Below, in pieces: positions 1 through 12,297 of a stretch of DNA of 64,000 bases (positions are counted from its first letter, which is position 1; every line of letters starts with the position of its first letter). The notes beneath the pieces were generated by a model, which was given only the letters and a program-made list of their open reading frames with translations, was not told the DNA's origin and ran no database searches. The stretch comes from Thermodesulfobacteriota bacterium (lineage in GTDB: Bacteria; Desulfobacterota; Desulfarculia; JACQYL01). Position numbers and translations under genes: made by a program. The stretch is from positions 2,816,001 through 2,880,000 of the forward strand of contig CAXXLZ010000002.1 of the NCBI GenBank assembly GCA_963675595.2, read 5' to 3'.

Positions 1-277
1 CCAGATCCGACGGCTTCAACTGGAGCCGTTCGGCCAAGTCTCGGGGTTCCACACCGCCGGTTTCTTCGAGAATCCGGAGTATGTCGGACTGTAAAGTGCT
101 CAGATCCGTCGCACCTCCGGACGCGTCTTCCAGGCGTTTGGCGCTGTGGATGGCCCAAGGATCGCAAGTTCGGGACGGAGACAACACGTCCATATAGCAA
201 TCCTCACAAAGCACTCTTCCGAGATGTTCCCTTTTTTCTTCCGCAGAGACGGCGTCCCCGCAACGATCACATTCCAT
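1..277 (-). CDS. small Zn-ribbon (CxxC..CxxC) + winged-HTH-like protein, runs off window edge
   Basis: Not in ORF track; manual translation from ATG 277 (AGGAG upstream): MECDRCGDAVSAEEKREHLGRVLCEDCYMDVLSPSRTCDPWAIHSAKRLE...LQSDILRILEETGGVEPRDLAERLQLKPSDL. Confidence 0.75.
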   Translation of the reverse strand, partial: MECDRCGDAVSAEEKREHLGRVLCEDCYMDVLSPSRTCDPWAIHSAKRLEDASGGATDLSTLQSDILRILEETGGVEPRDLAERLQLKPSDL

Positions 278-295
278 CGTTTCTTCTCCTATCGC

Positions 296-1054
296 CTATC
301 GTGCCTGAAGTTCCGGATGGGATTCCAAATTCAGCACCACCACATGGACTTTGCCCGTGTCCTCTTCCACGAGCTGGAGCCTGAGCAGTCGAGCCGTGGG
401 AGTCTCCCCGGGGAAGAACAGAAAGCCGTGCGCCAGCGTCTTGGGCTCCACCGGCACGTTCTGAAGGCTCTTGTCTCTCAAGTCTGAAATGATTTCCCTC
501 CGAGCGTCCCCGGAGCCATAGCCTTGCGCCCCTCCAATGACCGCTCCGGCGGCGGCTCCGACCGCAGCGCCCTTGCCCAATGCGGCGGCGACATTACTCC
601 CGCCCACGATGCCGATGGCGGCTCCCACTATGGCACCGGCGGCCGCTCCAAGAAGGCCGCGATAAGCTCCTTCCTTGACCACGTCCTCGGCACTCGCATG
701 CTTGGTCGCCCGATCATAGGCCATGTCCCTGGACAAGACGGCCCATAGGTTCCCCTGCTCGTCTTCCAAAAAAGTCTGGGCTCCGTTAATCTTGAGGGGA
801 TGACTCCCCCGGTTGTTGAAAACCACCTGCACGGGAAGCATGCCCGCGCCGCGGATATCGAAACCGAAGGCATCTTGGGCTTCCTTGGGATCCGCATACG
901 CTTGGGCCGCCACCATGGCGCCGCCCACCTCCACAACGTTGGCATAGGACTCCGGACTCCTGAAAGGCAACGGTTTGGCTTTGTAGGCCGTGGAGCAACC
1001 GACCAACAACAACACGGCCAGGATCAGGAGCGGCACTCGCATAATCCGGTTCAT
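296..1054 (-). CDS. lipoprotein with glycine-zipper region
   Basis: Start re-set to ATG 1054 (GGAGG RBS); signal peptide with lipobox LVGC; GAAAGAIVGAAIG/GAAVGAAAGAVIGG glycine zipper. Confidence 0.75.
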   Translation of the reverse strand: MNRIMRVPLLILAVLLLVGCSTAYKAKPLPFRSPESYANVVEVGGAMVAAQAYADPKEAQDAFGFDIRGAGMLPVQVVFNNRGSHPLKINGAQTFLEDEQGNLWAVLSRDMAYDRATKHASAEDVVKEGAYRGLLGAAAGAIVGAAIGIVGGSNVAAALGKGAAVGAAAGAVIGGAQGYGSGDARREIISDLRDKSLQNVPVEPKTLAHGFLFFPGETPTARLLRLQLVEEDTGKVHVVVLNLESHPELQAR

Positions 1055-1448
1055 GAAGCAATCCTCCCCTTGGGTTCCTCGGCTCGAATTTTCAGTGGTC
1101 GAGCCGGAGTTGTCGACCGGAATACAACAGCAGGGCAACGAACCGCACCGTTGCATCCTATTTTGAACAGACCGCCTCCCGGCCAAAGCCGTTTAGACGG
1201 GATTCCGATCTGCTCATTCAAACGTACTCCGGACGGGAATTCAAGGCCTTGCCGTACCGGACCGGGAGCGTCGTTTCCTTGATTTTGTTTGACATGCCGG
1301 GGCTGTTTTGTTACCCACTAGAGATCGAATTAACCCATGGACGAAGGCGGTATGGAATCGAGTTTGGCTCAGGACCCATTCCCTGATCATAGTCGTCGAA
1401 ACGGCTCGCGCACCAACTCCTTCATGCTTGACGGGCAGGGCAGAGGCA

Positions 1449-2819
1449 ATGAACGAGAGAGGCTATCAATTGCTCCAAGACACTGTGGAGCGACTTCTGC
1501 GCCGTCATGCCACGAAGAACCTGACCAAGATACTTAATAAGACCCATCCCGCCGATATCGCACATCTTTTTAGACTCCTCAACGACAGATCCGCCCGCCA
1601 ACTTTTCGAAATCCTCCCGGAAGTCGAAAGCGCACCCTTGATTCTCTCCGAAATGGAGCCTAGAGTTCGCATCGATTTCTTTCATTTCGTGGATCTGAAA
1701 CGCGCCGCGGAGATCCTCTCCGACATGGCTTACGACGATGCGGCCGACCTTCTCGGTGATCTGCCTCAGGAACTCCGCGATCAGATTCTCGCTCTGATGC
1801 CGGACAAGGACACCGAGGAAGTAGCCGAACTCCTCAGCTATCCCGAGGACACGGCCGGCCGGATCATGACCACGGACTTCCTCAACGTCCCCGAAACCAT
1901 GGTGGCGCACGAAGCGGTCCACGAAGTGCGTAAGGCGGCGGAACGAGAGAACGTGTTCTATTTGTACGTCACGGACGGCCAAAAAAGACTGGTGGGCGTC
2001 CTTTCCTTGCGGCAGTTGGTCACCGCACCCGACGACACGCCCATGTCCGGCCTCATGACCAGAGACGTGGTCAAGGTGCGGGTGGACACGGACCAGGAAG
2101 AGGTTGCGCGGATGGTTTCCCGCTACGATCTGCTGGCCGTGCCCGTGGTGGATCACGCGGACGTCCTGGTGGGAATCGTTACGGTGGACGACGTCATCGA
2201 CGTTCTCAAAGAAGAAGCCACCGAAGACATGCTGAAACTCGCCGGTACGTCCGAAGAGGAAATCAGTTCATTCTCCGCGGCGCGAAGCGCAAAGGTTCGT
2301 TCGCCTTGGTTGCTCATCGCATGGATCGAGGGCGTCATCGCGGTCAACATCATCGGGGCCTTCGAGGTTCAATTCAATGCCCATCTACAGTTGTTCGCGG
2401 CTTTGGCCGCCTTTATTCCCATCATCAATGGAATGGGTGGAAACATCGGCACGCAAAGCCTGTCCATCACGCTCCGAGGGCTGGCCACGCACCGCATAGA
2501 CCCGAAACATCTTTGGAGGGTGTTAAGCAAAGAAGTGAGGGTGGGGTTGATGCTGGGGATCGCTTACGGGTGCCTGCTGGGAGTGGTGGGATATTTTCTC
2601 AAGCAGGACGTCATGCTGGGCGTCGTCGTGGGCATCGCCATGTGTACCAACATGACCATTGCGGCATTGGTCGGCACGTTTCTTCCGATTTTGGCGGTCA
2701 AGCTGAAAATCGATCCCGCTGTTGCGTCGGGGCCGTTTATCACGACCAGTATGGATATCCTGGGCGTATCTCTGTATTTTTTTACCGCTTATTTCCTGAT
2801 TGTCCGTCTAGCCCAATGA
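1449..2819 (+). CDS. mgtE: magnesium transporter MgtE
   Basis: N-domain HPADIA, tandem CBS domains, TM region with GMGGNIGTQ and DPAVASGPFITTSMD; start ATG 1449. Confidence 0.95.
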   Translation: MNERGYQLLQDTVERLLRRHATKNLTKILNKTHPADIAHLFRLLNDRSARQLFEILPEVESAPLILSEMEPRVRIDFFHFVDLKRAAEILSDMAYDDAADLLGDLPQELRDQILALMPDKDTEEVAELLSYPEDTAGRIMTTDFLNVPETMVAHEAVHEVRKAAERENVFYLYVTDGQKRLVGVLSLRQLVTAPDDTPMSGLMTRDVVKVRVDTDQEEVARMVSRYDLLAVPVVDHADVLVGIVTVDDVIDVLKEEATEDMLKLAGTSEEEISSFSAARSAKVRSPWLLIAWIEGVIAVNIIGAFEVQFNAHLQLFAALAAFIPIINGMGGNIGTQSLSITLRGLATHRIDPKHLWRVLSKEVRVGLMLGIAYGCLLGVVGYFLKQDVMLGVVVGIAMCTNMTIAALVGTFLPILAVKLKIDPAVASGPFITTSMDILGVSLYFFTAYFLIVRLAQ

Positions 2820-2846
2820 AAGCGTCGGGCCGTGCTGCGGACGGCC

Positions 2847-3275
2847 TTATTCCTCCGGCGGTTTTTCATAGGGAAAGGGCTCGTCGTAACTCCCCGCCGC
2901 ATTTAGGTCGTCTTCATCCATTGAATCCGTGAGCATGTGGCAAAACCCGTCCAGCAGTCCCCCCAAAGCGATGGAGACGCTCCGCGCTTCCACGTTTCCT
3001 CGAATCCTGCCCGTTGCCCCGACGTTCAGTTGTTCGTAGGCGACGATGTTTCCCTTTACGGATCCGTTGACCATCACCTGGTTCGACACGATGTCCGCTT
3101 CGACCCGGCTTTCCTTGCCCAGGATCACCTGGCCCTTGCTTTCCACTTTGCCCTTGATGTTTCCCTGCACAAGCATACTGTTGTTCAGGAGGATGATCCC
3201 CTCGAACACACAATCCGATCCAATGACCGTTTCTATCTTTTCGTTGTCGACGGACCGCTTTTCCTGTTTCTTCAT
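2847..3275 (-). CDS. bactofilin (polymer-forming cytoskeletal protein)
   Basis: ETVIGSDCVFEG...VQGNIKGKV...VNGSVKGNIVA...GRIRGNVEARSVSIALGGLLDGFCHM beta-helix repeats; acidic tail. Confidence 0.9.
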   Translation of the reverse strand: MKKQEKRSVDNEKIETVIGSDCVFEGIILLNNSMLVQGNIKGKVESKGQVILGKESRVEADIVSNQVMVNGSVKGNIVAYEQLNVGATGRIRGNVEARSVSIALGGLLDGFCHMLTDSMDEDDLNAAGSYDEPFPYEKPPEE

Positions 3276-3304
3276 GCCTTAAGCCCGCAGAGACCTGTGA
3301 AGGG

Positions 3305-4405
3305 TCAGACGCTGAAAGGCCCGAACGCGTTTTCCTCGGACATGGCGGCGATGAGGGCGCCCTTCACGGTACTCGTCAATGGGTCGTCGGCCTTCCGTAC
3401 TTCCGAAATCCGTATGGGCAAACTGTATTCACTGAGTACTTTTTCGAAGGCGTCTCGAAAGCCGTTGGGACACACCGTTCCTCCCGCCAATACCATGGGC
3501 AAGGCGCTCAGGGAAGGAGGCATTTTCTTCTCTTCCTTGAGATGGGCTTCAATGTTGCTCGCCAAATGATGCATCACTTCATTGTAGAAAATGTGGAGCG
3601 CGTTTTCGATGCGGCTGCGCGGACTCCTGCCCAAATCGCACTCGTTTTCCTTGGCCAGACGAACGTCCGTGGGGTTCATATTGAGCACCGTGGCCGCCGA
3701 ATGATCGATATAATCCCCCGCCTTGGGAACCGAAAAAGAGAAAATGGGAAGAGACATGTAGGACAGGCAGACGTTGCACATACCCCCGCCGATGCTGACT
3801 CCGATCCCCGTAAAATTGTTGTCCGAAAGCTCGGAAAGAATCACGGCGTGGCCCTCATTGATCACCTTGACTTGGTACCCCATGGACATCAGGAAATTCC
3901 TGAAGATCGCCTCATGATATACCAGCCGCTCGGCTCCGTTTCTTGGAGCGGCGGGGATGCTCAGACACAGGGATTCACCCAAAGTGGCGGGGCGCTGTAT
4001 CAGGGTTTGAATGATCCGCTCGATCACTTTCTGCCCCAAGTCTTCGGCCGCGTTCAACAAACCGTGTCGCATGGGTCTGCGGGTTTCGGCCATGAACATG
4101 ACGGAGAACTTTTCGGCCGCGTTGCCCATGATATACATCTGGTTCCCGTCGGCGAAATAGTCCACGCGGTTCTTGTCCAGAATATCCAGGGCGAATTGGA
4201 CGTAAGGAACCGTGAAGAAAGCATTGAGCTGCCGTTTGGTCTCGATAACTTCGCCCTTCTTCTGACACATGACGATATAGCACGTGCCGATATCCAGACC
4301 CACGGGGCCCGTGGGACCCTCAGGCTTCTCATCAACGGCCTTCTCGGTGCTGACGATTGTCGCTTCAGACACGTTCATCGCTGTTTCTCTAAGGTCTTCG
4401 GTCAT
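3305..4405 (-). CDS. actin-like ATPase, volactin/Mad28-like
   Basis: Phosphate-1 GLDIGT, RRPMRHG, INEGHAVI, phosphate-2 GVSIGGGMCNVC, adenosine VLAGGT, C-terminal DPLTSTVKGAL. Confidence 0.85.
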   Translation of the reverse strand: MTEDLRETAMNVSEATIVSTEKAVDEKPEGPTGPVGLDIGTCYIVMCQKKGEVIETKRQLNAFFTVPYVQFALDILDKNRVDYFADGNQMYIMGNAAEKFSVMFMAETRRPMRHGLLNAAEDLGQKVIERIIQTLIQRPATLGESLCLSIPAAPRNGAERLVYHEAIFRNFLMSMGYQVKVINEGHAVILSELSDNNFTGIGVSIGGGMCNVCLSYMSLPIFSFSVPKAGDYIDHSAATVLNMNPTDVRLAKENECDLGRSPRSRIENALHIFYNEVMHHLASNIEAHLKEEKKMPPSLSALPMVLAGGTVCPNGFRDAFEKVLSEYSLPIRISEVRKADDPLTSTVKGALIAAMSEENAFGPFSV

Positions 4406-4508
4406 CGGACCCTCCCCTTCCCCTCATCGAGTCTCATGATTCGGTCGCCGCCTGGTCGGACCATTAGCTTTGCCTCTCCGATATAACCGACTGGTAACCA
4501 TCGATCCG

Positions 4509-5888
4509 TTATCTGCACGCGGCCAGTTCTTCTTCCTTTTCCCGAAGGCTCTTGGACAGCGAGCCGTACTGCAAATTCCACCGCGCCAGTTCTTCACTCT
4601 GTCTTTGCTTCTCGAGTTCGAGCCTTTCCGCCAGTTTTTCCTTCGCTTCCACCGCCCGAATGATTTCTTCTTCCACGTTTCGAAGCCTGATCTCGAGCGC
4701 GCGGTTCACCCTCACCAACTTTGCGGCCCGGTTTCGCCACTCGGCCGCCTTGGCGTAGATCTCCACCTCGGTCAACTCCCGGGTCAAATCATCGGCCGAG
4801 ATTTCCGGCATCTCCTCCAATCCCTTGACCCCCTTAAACTCTTCCACCTGTTCCGCAAGGGATCGGTTCTCCTCGATCAAACGCTCCTGTTCCGTCCGCG
4901 CTGCATCGAAACGAGACCGGAGGCTTTCACATTCCGCCTCGACGCTCAGTAACCTTGCCAGACATTGGTCCTTGATCGAAGTCTCCTGCGACAGCCGTAA
5001 GCGCAGGGAGCTCACATCTTCAAGGCTCTCGGCATGCTCCTGTTCCAGCGTCTGCAATCGTGCGCCGAGATCAATACTTTCCGATTGGAATCGTTCGAGA
5101 TCGGCCGACATCCGAGACACTCGTTGCTCCGCCTCGGCGGATTCATTTTGAGCCCGAGAAAGTTCTTGAGCAAGCCGGTCCCGTTCCTCGGACAGCTCGG
5201 AAACTTGGGAATTGAGAACGTCGTTTTCTTCCCGATACAAGAGGCAATCCTCGGCGGCCCGTTTGCCGGCTTCCGCCTCCTCCGCCACCTTCTCATTCAA
5301 ATATTGGATTTGCTGCTCGGCCTCGGCAAGGTGTTTCAGAGCCCGAACAAGTCGTTCCTCTTCGGATTCGGAAACCTCCGCCGGATTCTCCTGCTGCGAG
5401 GTCAGTCGTTGGTACTGATCTTTGGCTCTTTCGATCTTTTCGGCGTCGGTCAATCGCTCCTTGGCCGGTTCGTGGGCAAGACCGGCGATGCCCTCCTTGT
5501 GCTTTTCCTTGAGCTGGCCAAACAGCTTGACGCCGCCCTTCACCACCTCGATAAAAGTCGAATTGGTCAACGGTTCCGTGAGGTAACGATGGATATGGCC
5601 TTCGTTCATCGCTTCGGAAACTCGGAGGTTGAGAGAGGGCGTGATCAGGATACGGACCACCCAGGGGCGGAGGTCTTTGAGCGATGCAAATAGTTCGGAC
5701 CAGGGAAGCCCGGGGAGATCGGCGTCGGCAATCACCACCTGAACATCGGATTTTTCTATCAGCTCGATGACTTTTGAGGCATCCTTGGCCGTGAAAACAT
5801 CGAAAACTGCTGGAAGGGCGTTGGCCAAAGTTTTCGCCATTCCCGGATTCCTGTGCGCTATGACGACGCGTGGTCTTCGGATGTCCAT
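4509..5888 (-). CDS. atypical receiver domain + long coiled-coil protein
   Basis: N-terminal REC-like fold (VQVVIADADLPG, RILIT, YLTEP) followed by ~300 aa E/K/R/L-rich heptad region; AGAGGA RBS. Confidence 0.75.
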   Translation of the reverse strand: MDIRRPRVVIAHRNPGMAKTLANALPAVFDVFTAKDASKVIELIEKSDVQVVIADADLPGLPWSELFASLKDLRPWVVRILITPSLNLRVSEAMNEGHIHRYLTEPLTNSTFIEVVKGGVKLFGQLKEKHKEGIAGLAHEPAKERLTDAEKIERAKDQYQRLTSQQENPAEVSESEEERLVRALKHLAEAEQQIQYLNEKVAEEAEAGKRAAEDCLLYREENDVLNSQVSELSEERDRLAQELSRAQNESAEAEQRVSRMSADLERFQSESIDLGARLQTLEQEHAESLEDVSSLRLRLSQETSIKDQCLARLLSVEAECESLRSRFDAARTEQERLIEENRSLAEQVEEFKGVKGLEEMPEISADDLTRELTEVEIYAKAAEWRNRAAKLVRVNRALEIRLRNVEEEIIRAVEAKEKLAERLELEKQRQSEELARWNLQYGSLSKSLREKEEELAACR

Positions 5889-6144
5889 GGGTTGTCCTCT
5901 ATCATCGGTCTTTCCGCCGGGCGTTTCCGTTCAGGGCGGGCTCGGCGAACACCCCGGGAGCCGGGACTTGTTGGAACAACTTGGCGGCCTTCGCCGGTGA
6001 AGCGGTAATCGGGGCCACCGGTCCGGGCCCCGGATGCCGTCCTTACGACCCCTGCTCTTCACTTGAGCCAGCCGGTCTTGAAGCGGTCGTGACCCCGAAT
6101 TGTGAATCGTCAGGGCAAGAACGGTCGGGTTTTCAGCACCGATG

Positions 6145-6173
6145 TGCATATCACGACGGTCTATTCAAGTCAA
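6145..6173 (-). promoter_or_regulatory. putative sigma-70 promoter for the coiled-coil/actin/bactofilin operon
   Basis: TTGACT-17nt-TATGCA with TG just upstream of the -10 box. Confidence 0.4.
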
Positions 6174-6205
6174 CTCCCTATTCTCACTGAATTTATCAGC
6201 GGAAC

Positions 6206-7540
6206 TCATCCCCCTTCCACCATCAGGACGATCTTGTCCACCACCTCTTCGGGATTTTCCCCGCAAACGATCATTTGAGGCTCCAGCGCGAATCCCCCCT
6301 CGTGCCGGAGAATGTCCGGCGGGATGTCGCTCACGGCGGGCGAAAACTTGATCTCCAAAGCCCCACCCGAGCCCCGAGCCTCCGTCCATTGGATCCCGTG
6401 GACGGACAGCCCCTCCTTCTCCGCCCTCTCCACGAACCCGTCAACGAGCTTGAGGTTGATCGCGGCTCGAATGGTGGGGAACAAAGCGGTCATTGCCGGG
6501 AGCAGATTCCCCATAAAAGGCGAAACTCCGAAGTCCGGTGGGCTGAACGCGCTGATTCCGTCATAGTACCGGACGATCCCTCCGGGAAAAGACGCCGTCT
6601 CCCCGACACTTGCAGCGCGAGGCAATGCATAGACCAGATCGGCGGGAACATTTGGAAGGAGATAAGTGGGTTTCAAATCCTCCAGGGTCCCAAGGGCTTC
6701 CTCCAGCTTCTCCACCATGATCCGTCTTTCGCGTTCCAGAGCGAGCTGAGCGAAATGATTGGTGGGGCCGTGGCCATGACCCAGGGGTAAAGCGTGCCGG
6801 ATCGCCAAATCAATAAAGGATCTGGCTTGCCGCACGGCCTCGGGTACCGAATGCCCGCAACCCAGTCCTGCCGCTATGGCTGCTGAAAACGTACACCCGG
6901 TGCCGTGGGTGTGAGGGGTATCGTACCGGACCGCCTCGAAATCAAGGAAATCCCGTCCGTCGTAAAGCATATCCACCGGAGAGCGAGGCATGTGCCCTCC
7001 CTTGACCACCACGTTTTCAGCCCCGAGCCCATGAATGATTCGGGCCGCTTCCTGCATGTCCCCTCGATCGGAAATCTCAAGCCCCGCAAGGATTTCCGCT
7101 TCCGGCACGTTGGGAGTCACCACGCGGGACAAAGGAATCAGCGCCTTCCTTACAGCCTCACGCGCCTCGGCAAGCAATAGAGCGTCTCCGCTTTTCGCGA
7201 CCATTACCGGGTCCACAACCAGGTTACGGATCCCGTGTTCCTTCACCTTGTCCGCAACCAGTTCGACAATGTCGGCACTGAGCAGCATCCCCGTTTTAGC
7301 TGCATCGACACCAATGTCTTCGGCTACCGCGTCGATCTGCAACGCAATGAAATCCAGCGGGACCTCGTGGATACCCTTCACCGCCGTGGTGTTTTGGGCG
7401 GTCAACGCGGTCAGTACGCTCATGCCGAAACCACCCAGCACGGTGATGGTCTTCAAGTCGGCTTGAATTCCCGCGCCTCCACCCGAATCGGACCCGGCGA
7501 TTGTCAAGATTCTTGGAATGGTCCGGTCTTCTCCGATCAT
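6206..7540 (-). CDS. thiD: hydroxymethylpyrimidine/phosphomethylpyrimidine kinase ThiD fused to ThiN-like domain
   Basis: TIAGSDSGGGAGIQADLKT, VDPVMVAKSG, THGTGCTFS, GHGPTNH; ~175 aa C-terminal extension resembling ThiN. Confidence 0.9.
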   Translation of the reverse strand: MIGEDRTIPRILTIAGSDSGGGAGIQADLKTITVLGGFGMSVLTALTAQNTTAVKGIHEVPLDFIALQIDAVAEDIGVDAAKTGMLLSADIVELVADKVKEHGIRNLVVDPVMVAKSGDALLLAEAREAVRKALIPLSRVVTPNVPEAEILAGLEISDRGDMQEAARIIHGLGAENVVVKGGHMPRSPVDMLYDGRDFLDFEAVRYDTPHTHGTGCTFSAAIAAGLGCGHSVPEAVRQARSFIDLAIRHALPLGHGHGPTNHFAQLALERERRIMVEKLEEALGTLEDLKPTYLLPNVPADLVYALPRAASVGETASFPGGIVRYYDGISAFSPPDFGVSPFMGNLLPAMTALFPTIRAAINLKLVDGFVERAEKEGLSVHGIQWTEARGSGGALEIKFSPAVSDIPPDILRHEGGFALEPQMIVCGENPEEVVDKIVLMVEGG

Positions 7541-7701
7541 GTCGGCCGCTCCTTCGTACGCAGGGGTGCACAGTCCAGGGAGGATCCGCGTCGGTCGCGA
7601 CGTGGATACCGGCCCGTGCGCGCTCCCTGTGCTTCACTGGATAATTTTTTTGGACCCGACTTCTTTCGCACCGGCAAATAGGTCTGCCTCCCAAGGGAGA
7701 A

Positions 7702-9597
7702 TCAGCCGGCCGCGTCCTCAAGGTCCAACTGGCAGAGATCGGCCTTTTCATCGAACCGAAACGCGATGCGAAACACGCCGTCCTCGGCCATGGTACGCAC
7801 TCGGTAACCGGTTCGGTAGAACACATTCAGCATCTTCCGATTGGTGCTCAATACGTAAGCGGTAAAGCCGGCAATACCGTTTGCTTTGGCGATCTCCGTC
7901 AGGAAATGCAACAGAAACGACCCGACGCCTTTGCGCTGCAACTCATGGCTCACGGTGAAGTCCACTTCGGCCATGTCCGAATTGGGTTCCATGAGATAGC
8001 GCCCCATGGCTACGATACGTTCCGCTCCGATGTCTCCCATGACTCCCACAATGGCCACGCCGTCCTCATAATCGATGTTGCACATGGCCTGCGTGTCGTA
8101 ATGGGAGAAGACCTTCATGTTGGAAAGAAATCGGTAATAGATGTCTTCTTTGGGCAGGGAATAAAAAAATTCCTGTAAAGGACGTTCATCCGTCGGCCGA
8201 ATGGACCGGAAGAAGACCCGAACATCGTCTTTGAAAGTCTGCCATGTTTCCAGGTTCGGGTAGGCCAGTTCCATGCCGGTTTCGAGAATCTGGTCCTCGT
8301 AGAGAAATTTCAGTTGTTTGGCTTCGGCCAGAAGCTTGTCCCGGAACTTGGGATGAGCGATGCTGATCAGGGCCAAGGCCCGCTCTCGAATCGTCAGACC
8401 GTGCAGGTTTGCAATACCGAACTCGGTGATCACATACTGAACGGAACCGCGCGTAATGACCACCCCGCTTCCTTCATCGAGATGTGTCACGATGCGGGAC
8501 CGTTTCCCATCCCTGCTGATGGAAGGCATGGCCACGATGTGCCTTCCGTTTTCGGACATGCGCGTACCCACCATGAAATCCACGTAACCGCCGATACCGC
8601 TCAATATCTGGTAGCCTCTCGAATCCGCGCATACCTGCCCCGTGATATCCACTTGAACGGCGGAGTTGATGGACACCATGTGATCATTGGCCGCTATGAC
8701 CGTAGGATTGTTTACGTGCTCCGTCGGATAAAACTGCACTTGCGGATTGTCCCTTACGAGATCGTAAAGCCGCTTTGTCCCGATGCAAAAGCTGGCGATG
8801 ATCCTTCCGGCATGCTTGGTCTTCATTCGGGAAGTCACCGCCCCGGATTCGATCAATTCCAGAAAGGCGTCGTGAAGCACGTCGGTATGGATGCCCAGGT
8901 CCTTCTTCCCTTTAAGCGCCCTGAGCGCCTCGACACAAACCGCGTTCATGCCCGCATGTATTGTCGACCCGTCCTCCACGAGCTTGGCGACCTGTTCTCC
9001 GATGCGCTCATGGATGGAACTGGGAGTGCTTGCCGCCCACTCCAAGAGCGGCTCCTCGTGCTCGACAATGATGTCCAAGTCGTTGACGTGAATGAAGCTG
9101 TCGCCCCAGACTCTGGGCATGGCCGGATTCACCTGTGCCACCACGGTCCTGGCGCTTTCCGCGGCGGCTTTGGTAATGTCCACACTAATGCCGTAAGAGC
9201 AAAAACCGTGTTTGTCGGGGGGCGAAACCTGAATCAGGGCCACATGGATGGGAACCCGACCCGAGGTGAAAAGAGCGGGAACGTCCCTCAAATAGATCGG
9301 CGTGTAGTCGGCGCGACCTTCGGATACGGCCTCTCGCGAACCCGATGCGATGTAGAAGGACTTGAGCCGGAAATGGCCGGCGAATTCCGCATTGGTATAA
9401 GCCCGTTTGCCCATGGAAAGGGCGTGCAGTATTTCAATATCGGAAATGTACCAGCGCAGGGAAGCCAAAGAGTTGACCAGATGCTGAGGCTCTCCGCAGC
9501 CGGACCCGATGAAGACGCGCTCTCCGGGTTTGATTACCTTCAACGCCGTCTCGGCATCTCTCTTCTTTGCCTGATAATCCTTTTCCCAATCATGCAT
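7702..9597 (-). CDS. acetyl-CoA hydrolase/CoA-transferase-like domain fused to GNAT acetyltransferase
   Basis: VSPPDKHGFCSYG, GQVCADS, SGIGGYVDF, VITEFGIANLHG; C-terminal GNAT (RSIRPTDE, AEVDFTV, QRKGVG); start ATG 9597 with AAGGA. Confidence 0.85.
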   Translation of the reverse strand: MHDWEKDYQAKKRDAETALKVIKPGERVFIGSGCGEPQHLVNSLASLRWYISDIEILHALSMGKRAYTNAEFAGHFRLKSFYIASGSREAVSEGRADYTPIYLRDVPALFTSGRVPIHVALIQVSPPDKHGFCSYGISVDITKAAAESARTVVAQVNPAMPRVWGDSFIHVNDLDIIVEHEEPLLEWAASTPSSIHERIGEQVAKLVEDGSTIHAGMNAVCVEALRALKGKKDLGIHTDVLHDAFLELIESGAVTSRMKTKHAGRIIASFCIGTKRLYDLVRDNPQVQFYPTEHVNNPTVIAANDHMVSINSAVQVDITGQVCADSRGYQILSGIGGYVDFMVGTRMSENGRHIVAMPSISRDGKRSRIVTHLDEGSGVVITRGSVQYVITEFGIANLHGLTIRERALALISIAHPKFRDKLLAEAKQLKFLYEDQILETGMELAYPNLETWQTFKDDVRVFFRSIRPTDERPLQEFFYSLPKEDIYYRFLSNMKVFSHYDTQAMCNIDYEDGVAIVGVMGDIGAERIVAMGRYLMEPNSDMAEVDFTVSHELQRKGVGSFLLHFLTEIAKANGIAGFTAYVLSTNRKMLNVFYRTGYRVRTMAEDGVFRIAFRFDEKADLCQLDLEDAAG

Positions 9598-10076
9598 GGG
9601 GATATCTTTCCTTATGAATGACCTCAATTCCATGTGAGGGGAACGTTCCAAATTCGATTTCCGCCCCTTTGGAGGAATTCCCGCCTAAGCTTGGGGCGAG
9701 TGAGGAAACGGACTATGGAGGTGTCGCGGTGCTTCTCTTAAGATACGACGCCCCTAACAGATTAACAGAACAGACCCCAAGTTCAAGTCATTTCCCCTCG
9801 GAACGCTTTTGAAAAACCCATTGATTCATGTTAGGCTTCGGCTCGTTGCGGATCGAAGAGCGACGAGGCTTAAGAGCGGTTCGCCGAGCTTTCCACAAAG
9901 CCCTCCGGCCCGGTTTTATCCGAAAAAACGAGCGGTCTTCCGTCAATCGGGGGCTTCTCCATCTCTTCCGCCGGGAGCTCATAAATTCATACCCGCTTCC
10001 GAGTCGTCGGGTTCTGAACGGAATCAGCCCGAGCCCGTCGCGACGAATCCTCACCTCCTGCCGAGGGGACCTCCTC

Positions 10077-11288
10077 ATGGAGATCAAACCGACTTCCTAT
10101 ATTGAACGCCAGATGGGCGGCATGGACTATTTTCTTCTCTGGTTCGGCGCTTCCATTTCCATAGCCGAAATCTATGCCGGCAGTATTCTCGCCTCTCTGG
10201 GTTGGGTCATGGGGATGGCAGCGGTTCTCCTGGGACACCTCATCGGCAACCTTCCCCTCGCCTTGGGCGCCCTGGTCGGCAGTGAGCGCGGGTTGCCCAC
10301 CATGTATCTATTGAGGCCCACTTTCGGAAGGCACGGCTCATATCTGGCGTCCGTGTTGAACATCCTGCAATTGGTCGGCTGGACGGCGATCATGCTGCTG
10401 ATCTGTGAAAAAGCCGTTCGGGCCCTGCTGCCCGACCTCACCCTGGGGTACGCCAAATTGTTCATCGTGGTTCCCGGAATCGTTTGTACGATTTGGGCGC
10501 TATTGGGAAAGTCGTCTTTCAAATGGCTTCAGCGTCTCTCCATCATCACCCTGAGCACCCTGTGTCTCGGGATGACTCTCATGCTCTTTCTCAAACACGG
10601 AGAATTGGGCATTCAGAAGATGGGTGCCGACGGCGGGTTGTCTTTTGGAGTGGGTCTTGATCTCTGCATCGCCATGCCCATATCCTGGCTGCCGCTGGTG
10701 GCCGACTATTCCCGTTTCGCACGATCGGCCAAGGGAGGCTTCTTCGGCACCTACCTCGGTTATTTCATCGGAAGTTCCTGGATGTTCGCGCTCGGCCTGT
10801 CCAGCGGATTGATCCTGGGCAAACCGGACCCCATCATGGCGTTCGCCTCGCTCTGGTTCGGCCTTCCCGCTTTGGTCATCGTGTTGTTCAGTACTTTCAC
10901 CACGACATTCATGGATATCTACTCCTCGGCCGTATCGGCTTTGAACCTGAACCCAAAGGTTCGGATCGAAGTCTGTACGGTGCTCTCCGGCGCCCTGGGC
11001 ATCCTGGTGGCCCTGGTCTTCCCCATCGAACGCTATGAGTCGTTTCTGCTTCTGATCGGGTCCTTCTTTATTCCGCTTTTCGGCATTGCCTTGACCCATT
11101 ATTTTTTCCTTGACTACGAAGCGGTTCCCAAACGAAAGGCGGATTGGGGCGCTTTGGCGGTTTGGCTTGCGGGCGTCGGTCTCTACCAGGGTTGCCTGCG
11201 CGCCGACCTTGTGGTTGGAGCCTCCCTGCCCGCGCTTTTGGGCTCAGGACTACTTTTTTTTATCATGAAAAGATTTTTTGGAAGATAA
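10077..11288 (+). CDS. cytX: NCS1 family permease, putative hydroxymethylpyrimidine transporter CytX
   Basis: LWFGASISIAEI, AMPISWLPLVADYSRF, STFTTTFMDIYS; multi-TM; near thiD. Confidence 0.85.
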   Translation: MEIKPTSYIERQMGGMDYFLLWFGASISIAEIYAGSILASLGWVMGMAAVLLGHLIGNLPLALGALVGSERGLPTMYLLRPTFGRHGSYLASVLNILQLVGWTAIMLLICEKAVRALLPDLTLGYAKLFIVVPGIVCTIWALLGKSSFKWLQRLSIITLSTLCLGMTLMLFLKHGELGIQKMGADGGLSFGVGLDLCIAMPISWLPLVADYSRFARSAKGGFFGTYLGYFIGSSWMFALGLSSGLILGKPDPIMAFASLWFGLPALVIVLFSTFTTTFMDIYSSAVSALNLNPKVRIEVCTVLSGALGILVALVFPIERYESFLLLIGSFFIPLFGIALTHYFFLDYEAVPKRKADWGALAVWLAGVGLYQGCLRADLVVGASLPALLGSGLLFFIMKRFFGR

Positions 11289-11295
11289 TAAGAAT

Positions 11296-12297
11296 ATGAC
11301 CAGCGAGCGAAAGAAATGGTTGCAGCCTATTGGTTGGATCAAGCAAGGAATCCATTACCTTTCAGGTGTGCGAAGCAAATTCTTCGGAATCAAGACGATC
11401 GCGCTCGTGGGCGAAAGCGGCACGGGTAAGAGCTTTCACGCCCAGTCCATCGCCTCCTTGCTTAATTGTTCCTACATCATAGACGACGGATTGCTGATTC
11501 ACGGACAGCAGATTCTCGCCGGCAAGACGTCGAAGAACGAAGTTTCGCCGCTCAAGGCCATCCGACGCGCCATTTTCACCGACGACAAGCACATGCAGGC
11601 GGTTCGAGATACGATCCGCAGCCGCCACGCCGATCGGATCATGATTATCGGTACGTCGGAAAAGATGGTTCGCCTGATCTGCGAACGTTTGGGGCTACCT
11701 CAACCCTCACGCACGGTTTACATACACGAATTCGCCCAACCGGAAGACCTGATGGCGGCCCGTCGAAGCCGGGACATGGAAGGCAAACACGTGATCCCCG
11801 CACCTCAGGTCGAAGTGAAGAAGGTGTTCTCTCACGCCATCGTGGCCTCCGTGTCCCAGCTGATCGCCTCGTACCGACTCCACCGGCACCCTCCTCAAAC
11901 CATCGAAAAATCGGTGGTTCGCCCGGGGTACCAGATGGGCAGGCTGACCATTTCCGAATCCGCCCTCGCCTCTCTCGTCAAAGTCGTCATCGAACGACAC
12001 GACCCCGGAGTGGAGGTTCATCAGGTCCGAGTTCAGCTCAGCGACGGGCACATGCATGTTTACGGCGAGGTCGCCGTGGCGCTGGGCGACAATCTGCCCC
12101 AATCTTTGGGGCAGGCCCAGCAGGAAGTCTACAGCCAAGTGCGACAGTTCACCGGAATGCATGTGGAACGCGTGGATTTGAACGTGGTGGATATCCACCC
12201 GCCGATGGAGCTCGAAGCCGGCACGTCCGGCTGGAAGGCCCGACTGAAGAAAAAGAAGAAGGATAAGAAAAAAGAGCCGGAAGAGGAAGAAGGCTGA
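11296..12297 (+). CDS. P-loop NTPase with C-terminal Asp23/Gls24-like domain
   Basis: GESGTGKS Walker A, YIIDDGLLI, GKHVIPAP, EKSVVRP, GRLTISE...QFTGMHVERVDLNV. Confidence 0.7.
   Translation: MTSERKKWLQPIGWIKQGIHYLSGVRSKFFGIKTIALVGESGTGKSFHAQSIASLLNCSYIIDDGLLIHGQQILAGKTSKNEVSPLKAIRRAIFTDDKHMQAVRDTIRSRHADRIMIIGTSEKMVRLICERLGLPQPSRTVYIHEFAQPEDLMAARRSRDMEGKHVIPAPQVEVKKVFSHAIVASVSQLIASYRLHRHPPQTIEKSVVRPGYQMGRLTISESALASLVKVVIERHDPGVEVHQVRVQLSDGHMHVYGEVAVALGDNLPQSLGQAQQEVYSQVRQFTGMHVERVDLNVVDIHPPMELEAGTSGWKARLKKKKKDKKKEPEEEEG

Follow-up and report, generated by a model that had tools for sequence, protein, structure and literature searches.

The window analysed here is a 64,000-nt stretch of contig CAXXLZ010000002.1 (positions 2,816,001 to 2,880,000, forward strand) from a Thermodesulfobacteriota bacterium (assembly GCA_963675595.2). 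Its minus strand harbored three co-directional genes, coding for a pseudo-receiver coiled-coil protein (459 aa, 4509..5888), an actin of the Volactin/Mad28 family (366 aa, 3305..4405) and a bactofilin (142 aa, 2847..3275). The open reading frames (ORFs) were separated by gaps of 103 and 29 nt, in agreement with the initial annotation, made from the sequence alone, which had described three genes in one direction with gaps of about 100 and 30 nt. A small clade of Desulfobacterota possesses a four-gene operon that we read as morphogenetic. With a probability that we put at roughly 0.55, the three genes are a reduced copy of this operon, and part of a cell-wall or cell-shape module that is split over two loci in this genome.

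The Volactin/Mad28-family actin

The actin matched the PF25216 (Volactin) profile over its full length (263.5 bits for a cut-off of 35, profile positions 3-321 of 321). Rival models scored 22.1 bits for MreB_Mbl (cut-off 27), 19.2 for Salactin and 34.2 for the NCBIfam model of MamK (cut-off 400). The initial annotation had listed six motifs (GLDIGT, ETRRPMRHG, YHEA, INEG, ELSDNNFTGIG, NVCL), all readable in the 366-aa translation, and had placed the protein with volactin and Mad28 rather than with MreB, FtsA, ParM or MamK. This assignment was borne out by the PF25216 match, by the other actin models, which remained below cut-off, and by the fold and the tree described below. The Pfam core was preceded by an N-terminal extension of about 34 residues (the profile begins at residue 35), no HU domain was matched by Pfam in this protein, and the gene was chromosomal and present as a single copy in its genome.

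The AlphaFold 2 (AF2) model of the actin, obtained with 20 homologues as input, reached a predicted local distance difference test (pLDDT) score of 82 and a predicted template modelling score (pTM) of 0.84. The best Foldseek match of this model was MamK (5ljv, TM score of 0.72 on the target), ahead of MreB and BeeR; FtsA came only at rank 37. When solved structures were searched by sequence, the sole match was again MamK, at about 26 bits, so that the Volactin/Mad28 family has no solved member. Residues D38, G40, G206-G208 and G308-G309, which we take to be the phosphate and adenosine motifs, were unchanged across 20 family members. The window protein is therefore modelled as an actin fold with conserved nucleotide-binding Gly and Asp motifs.

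In an 86-row tree, the window actin and those of four genome-derived loci (L014-L017) formed a single clade (Shimodaira-Hasegawa-like approximate likelihood ratio test, SH-aLRT, of 98), set apart from a second group (SH-aLRT 95) whose 72 rows include the Mad28, Desulfobulbia-type and haloarchaeal proteins. The MreB outgroup lay on a branch of length 10 and placed the root, which is unreliable, within the Acidobacteria rows. The actin grouped with Mad28 and volactin and not with MreB, in a tree from which FtsA, ParM and MamK rows were absent. The haloarchaeal rows L111-L113, all from megaplasmids, formed a long branch inside the group with Mad28 and Desulfobulbia-type proteins; under so unreliable a root, this placement would fit an inter-domain transfer. 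One haloarchaeal member is annotated as 'cell division protein FtsA', which is contradicted by its 436 bits on Volactin.

Mad28, volactin and the window actin constitute one family, since the same PF25216 model matched the Mad28 orthologue encoded beside MamK at locus L088 (257 bits) and the plasmid-borne haloarchaeal proteins (436-447 bits, 36-37% identical to the window actin). For tests of the Mad28 link, family loci were chosen by their HEAT-repeat, coiled-coil and ParA-like neighbours. MamK scored above its cut-off (452-467 bits) in three of the five genomes with such mad-type neighbours, and adjoined the actin locus in two of these three.

The window's genome (98% complete) encoded no MamK above cut-off; the initial annotation had noted no mam/mad genes nearby. 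Its best match to the MamK model (73 bits for a cut-off of 400) was its own MreB, a canonical one (506 bits) located on the same contig about 1 Mb from the window actin, and no mreCD genes adjoined the latter. A magnetosome cluster in a genome with MamK, the strict mark of a Mad28, was lacking; the window actin had MgtE- and ThiD-like neighbours, and mad-type gene contexts were confined to other loci of the family. The organism is a non-magnetotactic, sulfate-reducer-type bacterium.

The operon in relatives and its probable split in this genome

Loci of the family were examined in species-representative genomes (the best 80 of 459) and in metagenomes (the best 80 of 204). Automatic ORF picking wrongly preferred antisense frames in 8 of 81 loci, and L014 was read by hand. 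As displayed by tblastn with the window proteins, the coiled-coil and bactofilin partners occurred, among genome loci, only at L014-L017, whose actins were 54-73% identical to that of the window; partner matches were also obtained at five metagenome loci (L114-L118). Neither partner was found at the other 76 genome and 75 metagenome loci (151 examined).

The coiled-coil gene preceded the actin gene in all ten loci of this subclade. An M23 peptidase and a bactofilin were encoded downstream of the actin in seven of the nine loci with enough downstream sequence, that of L118 being too short to score. In each of these seven (L014-L017, L114-L116), the actin and bactofilin genes were separated by the M23 peptidase gene (about 1 kb; M23 domain at 101.7 and 107.8 bits). 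Read by eye, the peptidase had an N-terminal tail of modest length, then a hydrophobic segment and a stretch resembling a coiled coil, with the M23 domain at the C-terminus. The window was the sole subclade locus with a bactofilin yet without the peptidase, a 29-nt spacer (3276..3304, minus strand) occupying the site of the M23 gene. At L117, the coiled-coil and actin genes were followed by an unrelated gene, so that a locus of this type can do without bactofilin and M23.

The three-component operon of the initial annotation was not the conserved unit, as the trio was syntenic at no other examined locus and the core was the coiled-coil gene with the actin gene (10 of 10). The conserved unit is a pseudo-receiver coiled-coil gene and an actin gene, usually followed by an LmdC-like M23 gene and then by a bactofilin gene. 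The MgtE and ThiD genes flanking the window operon had no match at L014-L017, hence the module stayed together while its surroundings changed.

The invariance of the coiled-coil and actin pair, which L117 keeps without M23 or bactofilin, may also be viewed in the light of Mad28, a positioner of magnetosome chains whose interaction partner is likewise a coiled-coil protein. The window actin could then place an intracellular structure, such as an inclusion, a compartment or a protein complex, along a curved membrane, with the coiled-coil protein as cargo adaptor. This appears improbable for a genome without MamK and a locus without mad-type neighbours, where no candidate cargo gene was linked and where the partners, in seven of nine loci, were a peptidoglycan hydrolase and a bactofilin.

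The 459-aa coiled-coil protein scored 30.0 bits on Response_reg in Pfam, just below the cut-off of 30.2, besides matching coiled-coil families, and was matched by solved receivers at an E-value of 2e-11 (HupR, 2jk1). Its AF2 model (overall pLDDT 80) displayed a receiver fold of alternating strands and helices at residues 7-135 (pLDDT about 90), a helix of about 180 residues (169-350), a disordered hinge (349-370) and a C-terminal helix of 85 residues, starting at a conserved EIY-x-KAAEW block. In the alignment with HupR, the acidic pair was replaced by H12-R13 and the lysine by E105, while D55 and T83 were retained; we take these positions to be the phosphorylation-pocket sites of receivers, by which pseudo-receivers are usually recognised. 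The pocket (acidic pair, Asp, Thr/Ser, Lys) was thus incomplete in the window receiver.

H12 and E105 were invariant in all 11 aligned rows, two pairs of which were identical sequences. The phospho-acceptor Asp was found in three rows only (the window and two identical L014 rows), the rest having Ser. With the acidic pair and the lysine replaced in 11 of 11 rows, the pseudo-receiver proposed by the initial annotation was upheld. The invariant residues M17, A18, T20, L21 and A22 of helix 1 suggest a protein-binding face. Complex predictions between the actin and residues 1-135 and 355-459 of the coiled-coil protein, run without controls, scored 0.33, 0.00 and 0.00 (mark 0.32), values that argue neither for nor against binding.

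In a search of the whole library, only two relatives of the coiled-coil protein fell below 1e-30. A few others aligned over the full length, at 28-32% identity, and all remaining matches were confined to the receiver domain. The protein is specific to this actin operon. Homology of its C-terminal part was sought with clusters c14, c17, c19, c20, c24, c27 and c40, encoded beside Mad28, and with c9, encoded upstream of the actin at non-magnetosome loci. It was rejected, with hhalign probabilities of at most 7% for all but one coiled-coil cluster, whose 62% was set aside as coiled-coil noise. An EIY-x-KAAEW-like motif was seen in one of 48 proteins.

In the window, the coiled-coil gene stopped at a TAA codon where the gene of L014 reads on. 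The 25 codons past this stop (4434..4508, minus strand), identified by frame translation and by DNA alignment to L014, could still be aligned in frame, with a second stop inside, and are the remnant of a lost C-terminal tail. A W-M-Q-x-Q-W motif, present in the tail of most homologues, was lost with it.

The M23 gene absent from the 29-nt spacer had a sole strong homologue in the window's genome (268 bits, 46% identical in the best segment), the other M23 genes scoring about 64 bits against the operon peptidase. This homologue was located on another contig (C1), where an LmdC-like M23 gene (360 aa) was directly followed by a bactofilin gene (156 aa; L098:7629-9200, minus strand). H-x-x-x-D and H-x-H were readable in the L014 and C1 peptidases. 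A gene of 1185 aa lay upstream of the C1 pair, on the same strand.

The genome encoded exactly two bactofilins, those of the window and of C1, whereas the genomes of the four relatives each encoded one bactofilin and one LmdC-like M23 peptidase, both in the actin operon. The two bactofilins were 44% identical to each other; against the single bactofilin of L014, the window protein was 57% and the C1 protein 63% identical. The M23 gene has thus been relocated to C1, together with a second bactofilin gene, and the operon would be split over two loci.

The window bactofilin matched PF04519 almost completely (80.4 bits for a cut-off of 27.9, profile positions 1-97 of 98). By eye, its start, MKKQEKRSV, was purely polar, with no hydrophobic residue after M1, while the four orthologous bactofilins and the C1 paralogue had an M-x-L-F/L-x-K-like start. 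The window protein may therefore have lost a membrane-targeting-like N-terminus. This is a reading by resemblance: the published membrane-targeting consensus of bactofilins, MFSKKKK, is common yet not universal, and the motif prevalent in Thermodesulfobacteriota bactofilins is described as departing from it (PMC12448750).

Independent contigs showed that these losses do not stem from faulty assembly. One of them, a 32-kb contig of a different study and 98% identical, spanned the whole 3.5 kb in the same gene order; it differed by 65 substitutions and by a single indel, of 2 nt, located in the upstream spacer, and bridged the actin-bactofilin junction (3276-3304) without indel. The stop region of the coiled-coil gene was covered by a contig of a third study with zero differences, was identical in contigs from two other runs, and a 93% identical coiled-coil protein of the representative library (P0121) ended at the same residue.

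Substitutions were counted in the first 40 of 64 differences from the 98% identical contig, which were taken in order up to position 5184, so that the lists for actin and bactofilin should be complete and that for the coiled-coil gene covers its C-terminal two thirds. All 14 changes in the actin gene were synonymous, and the bactofilin gene had 7 synonymous changes for 1 non-synonymous; with synonymous changes far above non-synonymous ones, both are under purifying selection and hence working genes. The coiled-coil gene showed 6 synonymous and 9 non-synonymous changes, and is either relaxed or simply fast-evolving.

The ratio in the coiled-coil gene, its premature stop and the second in-frame stop in the remnant, the missing M23 gene and the altered bactofilin N-terminus are also what a decaying remnant would display. 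The operon would then be in the course of being lost, following a duplication of the M23-bactofilin pair or its transfer to C1, the coiled-coil gene becoming a pseudogene, the trio no longer a unit, and the actin having perhaps a separate role, either kept or gained. We regard this as rather unlikely, because actin and bactofilin are clearly under purifying selection. Moreover, the truncated gene keeps a 459-aa open frame in which H12 and E105 are those invariant in the 11 rows, its truncated form has persisted, being shared by a 93% identical protein and by contigs from other runs, and substitutions are generally tolerated by coiled coils. A reduced copy of the operon remains our preferred reading.

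Distribution of the family and surroundings of the locus

A protein search with the window actin returned 1462 relatives at E <= 1e-5. The best 120 of these all matched PF25216, and those with a name were all called 'hypothetical protein'. Haloferax volcanii was the only one of 14 control genomes above the Volactin cut-off. Among the 82 bacterial rows of the tree, 10 came from loci with mad-type neighbours, so that, for the majority of the sampled bacterial members, the gene context is not that of a magnetosome cluster. The family was not found in either of the two genomes (95% and 99% complete) belonging to the same family as that of the window. The G427 genome encoded an actin 46% identical to that of the window, without any partner genes, and lies outside the evidence from the subclade.

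In Blastocatellia (Acidobacteria), the actin was fused, in a single ORF, to an N-terminal HU-type DNA-binding domain (L080:7740-9062, plus strand; PF00216, 51 bits, residues 1-78; PF25216, 262 bits, residues 118-436). HU-like N-terminal peptides were also seen by eye in L078:7557-8969, L083:4257-5603, L084:7740-9083 and L085:5160-6566. This fusion hints at a DNA-linked use of the actin family in Blastocatellia.

Such fusions (by Pfam at L080, by eye in four more) and the megaplasmids that carry the haloarchaeal members would suit a ParM- or salactin-like role, such as DNA segregation, in which the actin moves DNA and its neighbours are incidental. For the window actin this is very improbable: its gene is chromosomal, single-copy and without an HU domain, no adaptor gene or centromere-like repeats were seen at its locus, and the conserved neighbours in the subclade are cell-envelope proteins.

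Other neighbours of the family were observed. Locus L071, in a metagenome-assembled genome of Desulfobacteraceae, carried two family members (4182-5213 and 6853-7827) about 1.6 kb apart, with a small c14 gene and a ParA-like gene between them. The second actin was very divergent (37% identical, branch length 1.5), and no MamK scored above cut-off in this genome (76 bits). At 13 of 73 loci (L039, L042, L044, L046, L048, L050, L054, L062, L092 and others), a hybrid of PAS domain, histidine kinase and receiver (about 930 aa, cluster c6) was encoded no more than three genes away from the actin, frequently by the next downstream gene in the same orientation. Signalling proteins, namely this kinase and the pseudo-receiver, thus recur near the family, possibly by chance. 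Peptidoglycan enzymes were likewise recurrent neighbours in subclades unrelated to that of the window: a class A penicillin-binding protein (PBP) was encoded at most three genes from the actin at 21 of 73 loci, and an Amidase_2 gene lay near it in three Acidobacteria loci.

In the window, an MgtE-like gene was convergent with the operon and ended 27 nt past the bactofilin gene, and a ThiD-like gene ended 317 nt upstream of the coiled-coil gene. Two long ORFs lay upstream of the latter gene's ThiD-like neighbour (7702-9651, minus strand, 649 aa; 9828-11288, plus strand, 486 aa), neither of them kept beside the operon in relatives. The initial annotation had placed a promoter at 6145..6173 (minus strand; TTGACT, 17 nt, TATGCA, 257 nt 5' of the first start codon), and this found little backing. 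The -10 box of this putative promoter-like element was weak and the element was missed by a consensus scan of 2600-6400, which gave one site for 1.4 expected from shuffles, a match count at chance level, that site being inside the actin gene. A terminator scan gave none 3' of the bactofilin gene on the minus strand, an Rfam scan of window positions 1-12000 gave no match, and the repeat search at the locus gave nothing beyond short, chance-like repeats.

Proposed function and comparison with known systems

Bacterial shape is usually attributed to MreB, FtsZ, bactofilins and intermediate-filament-like proteins. For the cell-shape or organelle-positioning module proposed by the initial annotation, a role in cell shape remained plausible, and the trio as operon unit was not conserved. 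Several points weigh against a reduced morphogenetic operon. The window copy shows decay, with M23 gone, the coiled-coil tail cut by a stop and an excess of non-synonymous changes in what remains, and the change in the bactofilin N-terminus is read by resemblance to a consensus from which the motif prevalent in the phylum departs. The subclade is small, with 10 loci, one of which (L117) dispenses with bactofilin and M23. The family is patchy: of 400 other genomes sampled across the phylum, 11 carried it, as did 2 of the 40 nearest relatives (the genome of L014 and G427). The PBP and histidine-kinase neighbours may be due to chance, as such genes are common, and the coiled-coil protein showed no homology to its Mad counterparts, 62% being the highest hhalign probability reached.

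In the proposed mechanism, the actin would form nucleotide-dependent filaments that read membrane curvature, by analogy with what has been published for Mad28. The coiled-coil protein would act as a dedicated adaptor or regulator of the actin and would not be phosphorylated. The M23 hydrolase would be drawn in by bactofilin polymers that act on its cytoplasmic tail, in the manner described for BacA and LmdC, and the ensemble would place cell-wall cleavage at defined sites, so that the cell is shaped or remodelled. In the split machine of this genome, the actin-linked bactofilin, deprived of a membrane-targeting-like N-terminus, may co-polymerise with its membrane-bound paralogue of C1.

The literature on bactofilin-LmdC, Mad28 and volactin, together with the recurrent peptidoglycan-enzyme neighbours, leads us to suggest that the ancestral operon placed peptidoglycan cleavage by means of two polymers. 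The fuller version of this scheme is tentative, and we hold it to be possible rather than probable. A curvature-reading actin and its phosphorylation-blind adaptor would steer the bactofilin-LmdC hydrolase, this cell-wall role would be the original job of the family, and both magnetosome positioning by Mad28 and control of shape by haloarchaeal volactin would be later re-uses. Here, the machine would be divided between two specialised bactofilins, one membrane-bound with the hydrolase and the other actin-bound.

The family of each part was already known, as was the bactofilin-M23 pairing. In the publications consulted, Mad28 figures as an actin specific to magnetosomes and volactin as one of haloarchaea. 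No publication naming both was found in the literature search, although the supplements of their papers may list bacterial homologues. Three points had no counterpart in the searched literature, namely that Mad28 and volactin are equivalent, that non-magnetosome contexts predominate in the bacterial members sampled, and that a conserved operon links a Volactin/Mad28 actin and its pseudo-receiver coiled-coil partner with bactofilin and LmdC. One actin subclade is hard-wired to a known cell-wall module, and this operon is a first candidate for an actin-bactofilin partnership. The general function of the family and the origin of Mad28 curvature sensing become testable outside hard-to-grow magnetotactic bacteria.

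Like the MreB elongasome, the operon ties an actin-fold filament protein to peptidoglycan enzymes, and MreB was among the top fold matches. The window actin nevertheless scored only 22 bits on the MreB model and had no mreCD genes adjacent, the canonical MreB of the genome (506 bits) being encoded elsewhere.

Volactin (VolA of Haloferax volcanii) polymerises dynamically and affects the rod-to-disk shape transition (PMC10869688), and nucleotide-dependent polymerisation into filaments is published for both volactin and Mad28. Its Pfam model covered the window actin over its full length. Volactin differs in being archaeal, in a host without peptidoglycan, and in having no N-terminal extension, as the haloarchaeal members match the profile from residue 1 onwards and the window actin from residue 35; the three haloarchaeal loci examined were without bactofilin, M23 or receiver neighbours.

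Mad28 (Solidesulfovibrio magneticus RS-1 and others) positions magnetosome chains, binds membranes and localises in a curvature-dependent manner (PMC12713370), and the only two-hybrid partner reported for it is the coiled-coil protein Mad25 (bioRxiv 10.1101/2025.02.24.639979). It resembled the window actin by its PF25216 match (257 bits at L088 for 263.5 in the window), by 43-48% identity, by an N-terminal extension before the actin core and by a coiled-coil protein encoded upstream. Unlike Mad28, the window actin belonged to a separate, well-supported subclade, in a genome without MamK and at a locus without HEAT, Mad-type coiled-coil or ParA-like neighbours. Its partner was a pseudo-receiver coiled-coil protein with no detectable homology to Mad proteins, and its ancestral neighbours were the M23 peptidase and the bactofilin.

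The bactofilin-LmdC module controls morphogenesis in Hyphomonas neptunium and Rhodospirillum rubrum, LmdC being a DD-endopeptidase recruited by bactofilin and encoded next to it in many species (PMC10945521); the CcmA-Csd1 pair of Helicobacter pylori has been described as related. The same adjacency of M23 and bactofilin genes was found in the seven relatives and on contig C1, and the layout of the operon and C1 peptidases, read by eye, resembled that published for LmdC (PMC10945521), in which a cytoplasmic tail, a transmembrane helix and a coiled coil precede an M23 domain with zinc ligands. The window itself lacked the peptidase, and M23-bactofilin adjacency with it. The published module includes neither an actin nor a receiver protein; here, the M23-bactofilin pair shares an operon whose leading genes encode a pseudo-receiver coiled-coil protein and an actin of the Volactin family.

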